Shown: piece by piece, positions 18,170-39,005 of the stretch
How the letters are laid out: every line of letters begins with the position of its first letter
How positions within the stretch are numbered: the first letter of the stretch is position 1
Virus genome (UHGV): UHGV-0017783
From: a virus
Strand: one strand, 5' to 3'
Length of the DNA: 45,985 nt
Notes under the pieces: generated by a model
Told to the model about the DNA's origin: nothing
Databases searched by the model: none
What the model saw: the letters and a program-made list of their open reading frames with translations, nothing else
Made by a program: the position numbers and the translations under genes

Positions 18170-18617
18170 TGAACTGCTGGCGATGGAGGATATTCCACGG
18201 GAGCAGATTGAAGATACCATAAATCTTATTGAAGAGGAGTTTGAAGGAAAGGCTGAAATGGTTGCTGCTTACATTCGTGAGCTTGAAGCTGATGAAGCTG
18301 GACTTAAATCCGAGATTGACCGTCTTTCTGAGCGTAAGCGTGTTTTAGTTGCGAAGATTGATAACCTTAAAGGTTATCTTCTTCAAAACATGGTGGCGTC
18401 AGGAAAGACAAATATCAAAGGCAAGTTGTTCAGTATCACCATTGGAAAACCGTCACCAGTTCTTGATGTGTTTGTTCCTGTTGAGCGGCTTCCTGAGCAG
18501 TACCGAGTTGTGAAAGTGTCGGCAGATAATGCAGCAATTAAAAATGCGATAAAAGCCGGGATTGAAATTAAGGGTTGTGCCATCACCGACGGCAAACCAA
18601 AACTGATCATCAAATAA
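18135..18617 (+). CDS. Gp157-family protein (siphovirus Gp157, Sak4-associated)
   Basis: coiled-coil N-terminus and conserved C-terminal region typical of Gp157 proteins found with Sak4/SSB. Confidence 0.55.
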   Translation: MMHLYEITKQLNELLAMEDIPREQIEDTINLIEEEFEGKAEMVAAYIRELEADEAGLKSEIDRLSERKRVLVAKIDNLKGYLLQNMVASGKTNIKGKLFSITIGKPSPVLDVFVPVERLPEQYRVVKVSADNAAIKNAIKAGIEIKGCAITDGKPKLIIK

Positions 18618-18634
18618 ATCGAGAGGACACAAAA

Positions 18635-19156
18635 ATGGGTTTCTGGAATCTTTCTGACGGTAAAGCTGTTGAATCTAAATCTGAATTTGAACTGGGTGGT
18701 GGTTTTGAAGTAATTCCTGATGGTAGCCGTGTTCTTGCTGCCGTTGAAGAATGTAAAGACGACCAGTGGGAAGGTGAGCGATTCTTCAATCTTAAGTGGC
18801 GAATCCTTGATGGTGAGTATAAAAATCGCATCATCTTCCAGAAGCTGAAAGTATTTAGCTCAAAAGAAAAGCAGCGTGACAATGCTATCACTATGCTTGC
18901 AGCAATTGACGCAAACGCCGGTGGTAAGCTGATGGCATCAGGGAAAGAGCCGACTGATTTTGCTATTGCCAGCGCGCTTGCAAATCGCCCAATGATTCTT
19001 CTTCTGCGCGTTTGGGAATCTGAGGATAAGCAAAAAACTGGTAACTATGTGGCTGGTGTTTTCAGTCGTCAACAGACAAAAGCAGCGCCTGCTCCTAAGC
19101 AATCTGCACCGTCTAACGAGCCTCCGATGGACTTCGATTCAGACGTGCCATTTTGA
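18635..19156 (+). CDS. ssDNA-binding protein (DUF669-like) with SSB-type acidic C-terminal tail (..PPMDFDSDVPF)
   Basis: C-terminal DFDSDVPF resembles E. coli SSB tip DFDDDIPF; Gln/Pro-rich linker; position after Sak4/Gp157. Confidence 0.6.
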   Translation: MGFWNLSDGKAVESKSEFELGGGFEVIPDGSRVLAAVEECKDDQWEGERFFNLKWRILDGEYKNRIIFQKLKVFSSKEKQRDNAITMLAAIDANAGGKLMASGKEPTDFAIASALANRPMILLLRVWESEDKQKTGNYVAGVFSRQQTKAAPAPKQSAPSNEPPMDFDSDVPF

Positions 19157-35344: not shown

Positions 35345-35373
35345 TTGACGTAGATTGATGAGGTGTTTATAGT
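35345..35373 (+). promoter_or_regulatory. promoter TTGACG-17-TATAGT
   Basis: TTGACGTAGATTG 35345-35357; TATAGT 35368-35373; second gtgacgtagaa copy at 35376. Confidence 0.55.
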
Positions 35374-35870: not shown

Positions 35871-36179
35871 ATGAAAGATGAATTCAAAGGCACGAAAGGT
35901 CAGTGGACCAATCATTCTTTATTTACTGGTGAAGCGCGTACATCAATTTGGTCTGGTGATATTTATGTAGCAGAAGTAATGAGTGTTAGGGAGTCTGAAT
36001 CGGTGAAGAAGGCTAACTCAAATATTATAACATCAGCACCAGAACTTCTTGAAGCACTTCGCCAGCTTCGCGATTATGTTGAGGATGTTTGCGCAGTATC
36101 GTCGGATGATTGCCATGAGGAACATCCATTAAATCTGGCGAACAAAGCAATCAAGAAAGCATTAGGAAAGAAACAATGA
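35871..36179 (+). CDS. hypothetical protein, paralog of 2390..2686
   Basis: shared EFKGTxGxW / SAPELLEALRQL / NKAIKKALGKK motifs. Confidence 0.5.
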   Translation: MKDEFKGTKGQWTNHSLFTGEARTSIWSGDIYVAEVMSVRESESVKKANSNIITSAPELLEALRQLRDYVEDVCAVSSDDCHEEHPLNLANKAIKKALGKKQ

Positions 36180-36985
36180 AAACACTAAGCAAAATCTATT
36201 CAGACAAAGAAACGCGCAACGGCATCGCTGTAAACAAAACCTATCTCGTGCCAGTGGAGCAAATCTATCTGGAGCCTGGATACAACATCCGCGAAGCAGA
36301 TGAGCAGCATGTGGAATATTTCGCGCAGTGCTGGGAGTCAGGTCAGCCATTACCAGCATTAACAGTTATTCCAGATGAGAAGGGAATCCGCATTCTTGAT
36401 GGTCAGCATCGCTATCTCGGCGCATTGCGTGCCATTGAGCGCGGCGCGCCAATAGTTCGCATTGAGTGTAAGGATTTTACTGGCGACGAGGCGGATAAAA
36501 TCGCCTTCATGGTGTCATCCAGTCAGGGTAAGCAGCTTGACCCGTTTGAACGTGCAAAGGCTTACACTCGACTGAAAGGTTTTGGCTGGACGAATGAAGA
36601 AATCGCCAAAAAGGTAGGCCGCTCAGTATCTGACGTGCAAATGCATCTGTCACTGGGTGATGTGCCTGCTGAAGTAAAAGCGCGAATCAGCGCCGGGCAA
36701 ATCAGCTATGCAAACGCCGTAGCAGTAACGCGTGAGCATGGAGATGATGCGGTAAAAGTTATCGACGAGGCAGTGGAAGAAGCGAAGGCGCAAGGCAAGG
36801 ATAAGGTCACAGCGAAGGTGCTGAAATCCAAAAGGATTAAGCCAGTGGACCGCCTGATTGAGTTGTTGCAGCAAGCAGACCACGTGATTCTCCCTGCTGG
36901 TCATGTGGTGGCTGAGGATGAGGAATTTATCCAGATTCCTGTTGCTGATATTCACGAGGTTATGGCAATTCTGGAGAAGATGTGA
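36176..36985 (+). CDS. ParB N-terminal domain (ParB/Srx-fold nuclease/CTPase-like) protein
   Basis: ILDGQHRYLGALRA motif (ParB box-like DGQHR), 269 aa, C-terminal helical region. Confidence 0.6.
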   Translation: MKTLSKIYSDKETRNGIAVNKTYLVPVEQIYLEPGYNIREADEQHVEYFAQCWESGQPLPALTVIPDEKGIRILDGQHRYLGALRAIERGAPIVRIECKDFTGDEADKIAFMVSSSQGKQLDPFERAKAYTRLKGFGWTNEEIAKKVGRSVSDVQMHLSLGDVPAEVKARISAGQISYANAVAVTREHGDDAVKVIDEAVEEAKAQGKDKVTAKVLKSKRIKPVDRLIELLQQADHVILPAGHVVAEDEEFIQIPVADIHEVMAILEKM

Positions 36986-37176
36986 TGAGTAAGTATGAAG
37001 AGCTGGACTTGAAGATATTGCACATGCTTTCAGTTAAACCAACTCCTGTTTTTGATATATGGTTTAAGTTTCGTGACGATGTTAGAGACATTACGGTTAT
37101 TGACAGGAGGATGCAGGCACTGAAAAAGAAAGGTTTTGTTTATAATGTTCGCGGATGTGGTTGGGTTAAGTTATGA
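36982..37176 (+). CDS. hypothetical small protein (64 aa), possibly winged-helix
   Basis: translationally coupled ORF. Confidence 0.35.
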   Translation: MMSKYEELDLKILHMLSVKPTPVFDIWFKFRDDVRDITVIDRRMQALKKKGFVYNVRGCGWVKL

Positions 37177-37346
37177 CACCAGAACAATTCATCGAAAAAC
37201 AACTTCGCACCAAGCTACCAGACATTGACCAGATGGCAATTGATGCGGCAATTCAGCATTACAAGCGCAATCAGAGCGTAAAGAAGGGTGGCATTTTTGA
37301 GGAATGCCTGAAGGTTGCAAAACAACACATGATTAAGGTGAAGTGA
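37173..37346 (+). CDS. hypothetical protein (57 aa)
   Basis: ATGA overlap with upstream stop. Confidence 0.3.
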   Translation: MTPEQFIEKQLRTKLPDIDQMAIDAAIQHYKRNQSVKKGGIFEECLKVAKQHMIKVK

Positions 37347-37882
37347 TGAAACTAAAAATCAGCAAACTATTACTTGAGTCAGCATTAATATTTCAGGCGC
37401 GCAACGATGTGAGATATTACCTGAATGGTATCTGCTTTATGCCTGATGGTCGCATCGCCTCAACTGATGGTCATCGCGCATTTATTGGCGGCAGCCATGA
37501 CAATAAGCTGACAGAAAATGTGATTATCAAGATTGGAAAATCCCCAACAAAACGCTATGAGTACGCCATCATTGATACCAAGTCGAAAATTGCAACGTAT
37601 CATGATGAAGCCGGCGAGATGGTTGGTTCTGGTATCTGCGAAGAGATTGATGGAAGATTCCCTGATATTGAACGTGTTATACCGAAGCAAACCTTGCCAA
37701 CAGAGGAAATTGGCTTCAATGCTGGCTATCTGGTTGATATTGAGAAAGCGGCAAAGCTGTTTAATCCTAAATTCTGTGGTGTCAAATTTGAACTAAATGG
37801 AAACACAAACGCCGCAGTTTGCTGCCTTAGTGCGCCATCTGGCGAGACCGCAAAGGTTGTTGTTATGCCTATGCGTCTGTAG
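37346..37882 (+). CDS. truncated DNA polymerase III beta sliding-clamp (DnaN) homologue: domain II + C-terminal half of domain III
   Basis: [30 protein letters not shown] ~ DnaN [45 protein letters not shown] ~ [26 protein letters not shown] ~ EIGFNVSYVLDV; C-terminus [10 protein letters not shown] ~ AAYVVMPMRL. Confidence 0.75.
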   Translation: [178 protein letters not shown]

Positions 37883-37883
37883 T

Positions 37884-37919
37884 AATAAAAAACCCGCATT
37901 ATGCGGGTTTAGTTTATTC
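37884..37919. terminator. bidirectional rho-independent terminator
   Basis: aaaaaacccgcattatgcgggttt + agtttatt. Confidence 0.65.
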
Positions 37920-38189: not shown

Positions 38190-39005
38190 GTGACTTTTAT
38201 GAAAACAAGAAAAGAAGCCGCGCAAGAAGCAAGGGTTGCTGGATTGAAGCAATTTGTATGTGAATGGGTTCCATGCTCTGTATGTGGTGGAACTGTGTTT
38301 TTCACGGCGTCATGCGGGTGCAAGCATTGTGTATACGAAAGAACAAGGAAACAGAGAGCAACAGAGGAGCGCAAACGCAAGGAAAGTGAGTACAGAAAAA
38401 AGGAGTGGCAGAAAAACAAGGATAACAGCGAGTATAAAAAGAAAAGAAAACAATCACAAAAGGAGTACAACAAAAGGAAGATGCAAAGGCTTAACGAGAA
38501 TCCAGAGAAAAAGGAGGAGTTTTTACAAAAGAAAAGGGAGGCTTATCGCAGATGGTATCACTCTGAGAAAGGCAACAAAAAGGCTCTGGATAATGTCAAG
38601 CAATGGCAAAAGAAACACCCTCACCACGTGCTCCTAAGGAAGATGCTTGAGCGGATTGATGTGAGGGTATCTGACATTGCGCTTGATAGAACAGTAGACG
38701 ATGCTCTCGGGTACTCAAAGGATGATTTCATTAAGCATATAAAATCAACTATGCTTCCATGGATGAGTTTTGATGACCGTAGTAATTGGCATATTGACCA
38801 TATTTTATCTGTCAACTGGTTTGTTAAGAATAACCTCGTATACCCAGAACTGGTTAATGCTCTTCACAATTTAAAAGCGGAGCCGGCGGAGTACAACTAC
38901 AAGAAGAACAGGAAGTGGCTACGGACAGATATGACGGAATGGGAGTTTTGTTACATGTTACAGTACATGGTTTACGGTGAAATTAGATACAAAGAAGGGG
39001 GATAA
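38190..39005 (+). CDS. Zn-ribbon + Lys-rich + HNH-like (..NWHIDHILSV..) protein, putative homing endonuclease
   Basis: N-terminal CxxC..CxC, central poly-Lys/Glu low-complexity, C-terminal H-N-H-like motif; plus-strand insert before capsid gene with own promoter-like TTGTAG..TAATAT. Confidence 0.4.
   Translation: MTFMKTRKEAAQEARVAGLKQFVCEWVPCSVCGGTVFFTASCGCKHCVYERTRKQRATEERKRKESEYRKKEWQKNKDNSEYKKKRKQSQKEYNKRKMQRLNENPEKKEEFLQKKREAYRRWYHSEKGNKKALDNVKQWQKKHPHHVLLRKMLERIDVRVSDIALDRTVDDALGYSKDDFIKHIKSTMLPWMSFDDRSNWHIDHILSVNWFVKNNLVYPELVNALHNLKAEPAEYNYKKNRKWLRTDMTEWEFCYMLQYMVYGEIRYKEGG

Follow-up and report, generated by a model that had tools for sequence, protein, structure and literature searches.

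Among the closest known relatives of the protein reported here is the bacterial beta clamp DnaN, a chain of 366 amino acids (aa) in Escherichia coli (PDB 1MMI/2POL) whose protein-binding pocket is bounded by the domain II edge strand (H175-L177) and the final strand of domain III (V360-M362). Two elements build the beta dimer interface: on one side the last (edge) strand and second helix of domain I, and on the other the N-terminal half of domain III, with its edge strand near I305 and the end of its helix at I272/L273. We analysed a stretch of 45,985 nucleotides from a virus (UHGV virus genome UHGV-0017783; hereafter the window), which is nearly the whole genome of a ~46 kb Skatevirus siphovirus and carries on its plus strand a gene for a protein of 178 aa, referred to below as the half-clamp. 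The half-clamp retains exactly the two pocket-forming elements named above and is a clamp-fold protein reduced to the pocket. On the evidence of its sequence and that of its relatives, it is fairly probable that it acts as a soluble module outside any ring and binds the clamp-binding motifs of host proteins via this pocket.

Other described systems resemble the half-clamp in part. The herpesvirus processivity factors UL42 of herpes simplex virus (HSV), UL44 of human cytomegalovirus (HCMV) and PF-8 of Kaposi's sarcoma-associated herpesvirus (KSHV) consist of two full domains and bind both DNA (directly) and the polymerase of their own virus. In contrast, the half-clamp lacks two complete processivity-fold domains and its phage lacks a polymerase of its own, and we know of no sequence relationship between these factors and the half-clamp. 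Among phages, Twort Gp168 plugs the clamp channel (PDB 7EVP), Mu MuC binds beta via clamp-binding motifs and, when overexpressed, perturbs Hda and RIDA (DnaA's regulatory inactivation) with over-initiation, and the lambda small RNA LPR1/PreS raises dnaN translation; the lambda and MuC precedents indicate that phages are affected by how much clamp is available and by what occupies its pocket. All of these exploit the beta clamp hub in infection, as proposed here for the half-clamp, but Gp168, MuC and LPR1/PreS are ligands or regulators of the host clamp whereas the half-clamp copies the docking site, the inverse strategy. A monomeric beta mutant (I272A/L273A) binds delta in a crystal structure (PMC11139829), which indicates that a pocket carrier outside a ring can bind partners. 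Like the half-clamp as read here, this mutant is unable to close a ring and keeps the pocket, which in the mutant works; it is, however, laboratory-made and has all three domains, whereas the half-clamp is natural and half that size.

Comparison of the half-clamp with DnaN gave alignments well beyond chance. A phmmer search against PDB sequences returned enterobacterial beta clamps with E 2e-14 to 7e-13, aligning aa 7-154 with DnaN 136-289, and a second stretch aligned aa 119-178 with DnaN 313-366. BLASTP against E. coli DnaN recovered the same DnaN 136-289 stretch (E 2e-13) and a second alignment of aa 121-178 with DnaN 316-366 (E 4e-6), with an overall identity of ~30%, and the half-clamp ends in the same seven residues as E. 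coli DnaN (VVMPMRL). These alignments supply the pairwise comparison that an earlier, sequence-only reading of this DNA had asked for; the similarity is not of low complexity and covers the motifs, VVMPMRL included. Curated models were matched weakly, with TIGR00663 (E 4e-8) scoring 32.6 bits for a cut-off of 137.65 and both PF02767 (15.8) and PF02768 (15.1) lying below the cut-off of 27. Profile, phmmer and BLASTP searches found no match to DnaN domain I in the 178 aa, the alignments reaching DnaN 136-289 or 313-366 only, and at this length the protein does not have the three-domain chain of ~366 aa that characterizes DnaN (TIGR00663; PF00712+PF02767+PF02768). The gene and the parts of its product are as follows.

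37346..37882, plus strand: coding sequence of the half-clamp, 178 aa, stop codon (37880-37882) counted in
37346..37648, plus strand: DnaN domain II-like part, aa 1-101, from the phmmer alignment to DnaN 136-238 and the DSSP assignment of the model
37649..37684, plus strand: inter-domain linker, aa 102-113, from the alignments, with the equivalents of P242, R246 and V247 (P106 conserved at 0.98 in the family)
37685..37879, plus strand: single beta-alpha-beta-beta-beta half-domain, aa 114-178, corresponding to half of DnaN domain III

An AlphaFold2 model, for which 94 diverse family members were aligned as input, predicted a compact monomer (pLDDT 96.6, pTM 0.91). DSSP assigned to aa 1-101 a strand (2-6), a helix (7-16) and then seven strands, and to the half-domain a helix (126-139) and strands at 157-162 and 168-173. 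The helices at aa 7-16 and 126-139 were the only two long ones in the model, and the second channel helix of domain II (~RKGVIELMRML in E. coli) is therefore missing. The model superposed rigidly on beta clamps and showed the beta-alpha-beta-beta-beta repeats of the processivity fold; the top 50 Foldseek matches in the PDB were all beta clamps, and BFVD held many phage proteins of 180-210 aa with the same fold (TM-score 0.8-0.9, identity 16-30%). The half-domain could be aligned in two ways, with DnaN 255-289 or with DnaN 313-366, its helix and following strand resembling the N-terminal half of domain III (counterpart AAILSNEKFRGVRLYV) and its start (IGFN..Y) and last strand resembling the C-terminal half. 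The sequence-only reading had described a half sliding clamp, made of domain II and half of domain III, and both the alignments and the model agree with this. It had further taken the protein as colinear with domain II and the C-terminal half of domain III; the homology is real, but the C-terminal part resembles both halves of domain III. Domain I and half of domain III are gone, as it had stated, but so is one channel helix of domain II.

Compared with DnaN, therefore, the half-clamp is without domain I, half of domain III and one domain II channel helix, it is basic where beta is acidic, it falls far below the curated family cut-offs, and its dimer interface is not intact. Domain I is absent and so is the edge strand of the domain III N-terminal half, while the I272/L273 equivalents, K137/L138, are poorly conserved in the family (K 0.55, L 0.21). 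In the model the domain II helix that corresponds to the domain I interface helix is absent as well, and the head-to-tail dimer interface of DnaN is thus not reproduced. For these reasons a closed ring formed by the half-clamp alone, which the sequence-only reading had excluded, is unlikely. The suggestion of that reading that it caps or poisons host beta dimers was not borne out, capping of host beta being unlikely because both interface elements are absent or incomplete; the equivalent helix of domain II is missing too.

The published pocket consists of subsite I (R152, L155, T172, G174, H175, R176, L177, P242, R246, V247, V360 and M362) and subsite II (H175, N320, Y323, V344, M362, P363, M364 and R365) (PMC11139829). 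Sixteen of the 18 residues were the same in the half-clamp as in E. coli, the exceptions being L177, replaced by Ala, and V344, replaced by Thr at a position that a review describes as not conserved among clamps (PMC11139829). Besides the linker, four segments hold pocket residues.

37406..37429, plus strand: DVRYYLNG, aa 21-28, equal to E. coli 150-157, holding R152 and L155 (family conservation 0.92-0.97)
37463..37480, plus strand: TDGHRA, aa 40-45, matching E. coli T172-L177 with Ala for L177, the domain II edge strand that lines subsite I (T40 0.92, G42 0.99, H43 0.92)
37709..37729, plus strand: IGFNAGY, aa 122-128, bearing the subsite II residues that correspond to N320 and Y323 (N125 0.76, Y128 0.94)
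37859..37879, plus strand: VVMPMRL, aa 172-178, equal to E. coli V360-L366, the strand closing the pocket (M174 0.97, P175 0.91, R177 0.83)

Among 131 family representatives with mutual identity <50%, the pocket columns had an average conservation of 0.77 compared to 0.36 elsewhere (permutation p<1e-5) and pocket residues made up 11 of the 20 top-conserved columns. The motif h-h-h-M-P-x-R-h stood mostly at the extreme C-terminus, as in DnaN. Conservation outside the pocket was low and no second conserved surface stood out. This indicates that selection is centred on the docking site, and the claim that the protein-binding cleft is retained was confirmed, the pocket being the most conserved part of the family. 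Some longer members (P0204, P0243, P0220, P0247, P0232, P0260) carry an extension of 15-35 aa after MPxR; these extensions end in -AA (…AEAA, …TATAA, …ENAA, …EQAA, …EEAA, …AAAA), are reminiscent of ssrA-like ClpXP degrons and, by that analogy, may be a sign of proteolytic control.

With a match along its whole length (E 7.8e-64, aa 1-178 covering 1-186 of the 190 profile positions), the half-clamp belongs to PHROG 3007, whose short phage DnaN-like proteins have the same 1.5-domain fold and show no structural difference from it. It is 93-95% identical to Skatevirus phage proteins. A HMMER search of 1.84 billion representatives gave 1,993 matches, with 204 cluster representatives at E<1e-10 and the top matches nearly all 170-200 aa long, and tblastn found the gene in 285 phage records with hosts including Salmonella, Escherichia, Klebsiella, Shigella, Vibrio, Acinetobacter, Proteus, Burkholderia, Pantoea and Pseudomonas. 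A pseudogene or a recent truncation was rejected, given the size of this old family, the constancy of its length and its conservation. The median isoelectric point of the family is mildly basic (8.2) compared to 5.2 for beta. Homologues from Burkholderia, Vibrio and Pseudomonas phages matched enterobacterial DnaN best, above the clamps of their own host groups, which points to derivation of the tested members from one gammaproteobacterial-type DnaN followed by spread among phages and led us to reject repeated capture from, or tracking of, each host. One relative of 318 aa (P0267) has ~100 additional N-terminal residues and ends in LMPMRI, its Pfam matches covering the central DnaN domain only; it may represent a stage between complete clamps and the 1.5-domain form.

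PHROG 3007 and many RefSeq records, for example gp34 of VSt472 (L001, 16958-17494), bear the name 'RusA-like Holliday junction resolvase'. No RusA was present among Pfam matches to E 10 or in NCBIfam, and these two, the search of PDB sequences and the fold all point to a beta clamp instead; the RusA label looks like a propagated misannotation. The commoner label of GenBank submitters is 'DNA polymerase III beta subunit', with 'DNA Pol III b subunit fragment' in Bcep43, and labelled short DnaN-like examples include Bcep43 gp15, EP23 p08 and LIET2 gp111. Recognition of these proteins as beta fragments is therefore not new and has been present in annotations for years. Full-text literature searches returned no structural or functional study of the PHROG 3007 half-clamp family, and no curated family for it exists in the databases searched.

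The replication genes of the phage encode a Prim-Pol/PriCT_2/DUF3987 primase-helicase-type protein, a superfamily 2 (SF2) helicase and a Sak4-like annealing protein, and further genes encode a Gp157-family protein, a DUF669 protein and nucleases. No DNA polymerase of family A, B or C and no clamp-loader gene were found in the window; because no replicative polymerase is encoded, the phage must use host DNA polymerase III (Pol III). The DUF669 protein (18575-19156, plus strand), annotated in VSt472 as a single-stranded DNA-binding protein (SSB), ends in ...PPMDFDSDVPF, close to the acidic C-terminal tip of host SSB. That tip recruits host replisome and repair proteins, which would make the DUF669 protein the second candidate for host-hub mimicry in the phage, as far as its terminal residues go.

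In the mechanism we propose, the half-domain supplies the helix with the N320/Y323 equivalents and the C-terminal strand VVMPMRL, which in a complete clamp close the pocket against domain II. The half-clamp would then bind the QLxLF / QLxLxF motifs by which host proteins dock on beta, candidate ligands being Pol III alpha and epsilon, the delta subunit, Pol II/IV/V, Hda and MutS/MutL. Binding would take place off DNA, in soluble competition with the host clamp, and the targets would be host proteins with no phage partner. A decoy or binder role is the leading idea because of the anatomy of the half-clamp, its retained and conserved pocket and its rigid superposition on beta; a decoy that competes for host clamp-binding-motif proteins is favoured, tentatively, because the pocket alone is conserved, the genomic settings are varied and no phage ligand is evident. 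More generally, the family probably captures or redirects host clamp-binding proteins. Since the phage is without a replicative polymerase, indiscriminate sequestration of Pol III is an unlikely purpose, and because Pol III is needed the main targets may be factors held on beta by a single motif (Hda, Pol II/IV/V, MutS/L), which would be titrated while multivalent Pol III-beta-DNA complexes are spared. The outcome would be a scarce host replisome biased to phage DNA and a disturbed control of host replication. Of the steps in this proposal, the direction of the effect (sequestration or recruitment) is the least certain.

Four points weigh against this proposal. The L177 position is Ala in the half-clamp (family column L 0.48, M 0.23, A 0.18), and subsite I may accordingly have a different specificity. 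The pocket is also the most conserved part of DnaN at large, and homologue detection therefore partly favours pocket residues. A plain decoy would also compete for the Pol III alpha, epsilon and delta that the phage needs, and selectivity for single-motif factors is something we infer. Finally, the half-clamp of phage LIET2 lies between helicase/VRR-NUC and endonuclease VII genes, a position that fits an adaptor at phage replication forks at least equally.

The surroundings of the half-clamp gene differ widely by lineage and include head, tail and replication modules and early operons. In EP23 and Bcep43 it stands alone on the opposite strand within the head-gene block. Across the three genera represented by EP23 (L002, 4998-5510), Bcep43 (L003, 4998-5579) and the window (37346-37882) it is encoded on the opposite strand, within the head block or next to it, flanked by head-morphogenesis and scaffold, protease or capsid genes. 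It lies among tail genes in Vibrio phage 1.098.O and in the early region of a Klebsiella plasmid prophage, whereas the order in Pantoea phage LIET2 is primase, RecA-like, helicase, VRR-NUC, half-clamp and endonuclease VII, the last gene (L006, 14835-15293) being two genes downstream of the half-clamp. Plasmid records with a match numbered only 12 and the one inspected was a prophage-like early region, and on this ground a plasmid leading-region function was rejected. The closest records to the window, 88-94% identical to it in nucleotides near the half-clamp gene, were those of Salmonella virus VSt472, Skate, Akira, Seszw, Sf11 and swi2, and the half-clamp operon of VSt472 is annotated as starting with an 'anti-restriction protein'.

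In the window the half-clamp is the last gene of a predicted early operon of seven same-strand genes that runs from ~35345 to 37890-37910. The open reading frame is placed as the sequence-only reading had it, with an ATG at 37346 that shares 1 base with the TGA of the upstream 57-aa gene and a Shine-Dalgarno-like site (AAGGTGA, 37335-37341) 5' of it. The features around it are listed below.

35345..35373, plus strand: candidate sigma-70-like promoter, TTGACG-17-TATAGT, 10/12 (consensus match only), upstream of the seven-gene operon
36176-36985, plus strand: gene for a ParB/KorB-helix-turn-helix (HTH)-like protein, its stop overlapping the next start
36982-37176, plus strand: gene for a 64-aa protein, its stop overlapping the next start
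37173-37346, plus strand: gene for a 57-aa protein, phrog_4439 (E 1e-22), its stop overlapping the half-clamp start
37890..37910, no strand assigned: strong bidirectional intrinsic-terminator-like hairpin, AAACCCGCAT-TAT-GCGGGTTT, closing the operon
38190-39005, plus strand: endonuclease VII/HNH-like gene, phrog_1035, adjoining the half-clamp operon

Promoter-type consensus sites were fewer in this region than in shuffled sequence. The stop/start overlaps in the run 36176..37346 are GTGA, ATGA and TGATG, and between 35678 and 37348 five consecutive junctions overlap in this way (35859/35869, 36176/36179, 36982/36985, 37173/37176 and 37346). Because stops and starts overlap at five junctions, the arrangement suggests that the genes for the 106-aa, ParB-like, 64-aa and 57-aa proteins and the half-clamp may be translated as a coupled set. 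The endonuclease VII/HNH-like gene encodes a long Lys/Glu/Arg-rich insert. The 57-aa gene family was confined to Skatevirus-like phages in tblastn and a search of 5.8 billion proteins; outside this group neither a 57-aa nor a ParB-like gene was found beside the half-clamp, bar one remote PHROG match to the 57-aa protein (E 6e-6) in the distant Vibrio phage 1.115.B (L004, 5531-5710), where its gene comes directly downstream of the half-clamp. This protein and its Vibrio relative may be a partner of the half-clamp, or the match may be due to chance. The gene downstream in EP23 is unrelated to the ParB-like protein and was rejected as a conserved partner.

Among the alternatives to a decoy, an adaptor or tether survives best. 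Here the half-clamp would be anchored to a phage helicase, Prim-Pol or SSB-like protein via a lineage-specific surface while at phage forks its pocket holds the clamp loader or the core of host Pol III, amounting to a tau-like coupling for phages that have their own helicase and primase and no polymerase. We regard it as a minority possibility, nearly as good as the decoy and the more interesting outcome. The lack of a replicative polymerase fits it, as do the place of the half-clamp within the replication block of LIET2 and the endonuclease VII-like gene that adjoins it here too, the DUF669 tip, which suggests a wider mimicry of host replisome hubs, and the half-clamp start, whose overlap with the upstream stop is the last in a run of overlaps from the ParB-like gene. 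However, outside the pocket conservation is low and no second conserved patch stands out, the half-clamp is far from replication genes in most lineages, and the 57-aa and ParB-like neighbours do not accompany it beyond the Skatevirus-like group apart from the one remote match. In the narrower form of a coupling factor anchored to the phage helicase-primase, the copied pocket holding host Pol III through its alpha/epsilon motifs or the clamp loader, with a tetrameric clamp ring of 1.5-domain subunits as a variant, the idea is rather unlikely.

A true phage sliding clamp, in which four 1.5-domain protomers, or dimers sharing half-domains, would form a six-domain DNA-encircling ring that gives host Pol III processivity, is improbable. 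Four times 1.5 domains does yield the six domains of a clamp ring, pairing could occur at the free sheet edges of the lone half-domain, and the polymerase-holding pocket is intact. Against this, each protomer has two channel helices and not the expected three, the known dimer interface has no intact half, the compact monomer was modelled with very high confidence (pTM as above), and a compatible loader would be needed in a phage that has no clamp-loader gene.

Still less probable is a pocket that binds a phage partner with a non-canonical motif, or single-stranded or primed DNA, in place of host proteins. The beta pocket also binds single-stranded DNA in crystals (PMC11139829), the family is mildly basic, and the small phrog_4439 protein adjoins the half-clamp both here and in a distant Vibrio phage. 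However, canonical clamp-binding motifs (QL[SDE]LF, Q[LMIV]x[LMI]F, QLxLxL, QxxLxF) occurred in no real open reading frame of the window, matches being confined to two short and probably spurious ones. By a looser pattern, QMHLSL in the ParB/KorB-HTH-like protein (aa 155-160) fits QLxLxL; it lies inside the region matching the ParB HTH domain and was for that reason judged a chance match. Neighbours are not conserved across the family, and the residue-by-residue identity to the host pocket argues for host-type ligands.

The weakest alternative, the capping idea of the sequence-only reading taken as a poison in which a free sheet edge pairs with an opened beta monomer and blocks ring closure, would draw on the unpaired last strand of the domain II-like part (aa 92-101), which by internal repeat may be homologous to the domain I interface strand, but it is very unlikely given that the helix packing beside this strand at the interface is absent, that K137/L138 are poorly conserved, that blocking beta would also halt a Pol III-dependent phage and that selection acts on the pocket and not on the edge.

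In bacterial replication and repair the beta-clamp pocket serves as the central docking site, and it is an antibiotic target. Hundreds of phages carry a member of the half-clamp family, some of them candidates for therapy against Salmonella, E. coli and Klebsiella, and in reference annotation the family is misnamed. A small, soluble, monomer-sized pocket scaffold of this kind would also be of use for peptide and inhibitor studies. If the half-clamp does bind host clamp-binding proteins, such a widespread natural copy of the pocket would be a new viral handle on the host replisome, one that mimics the hub rather than the ligand, and could account in part for the way in which polymerase-less phages compete for host Pol III. 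If instead it is a coupling factor, it would explain how virulent phages without a polymerase win the few Pol III holoenzymes.
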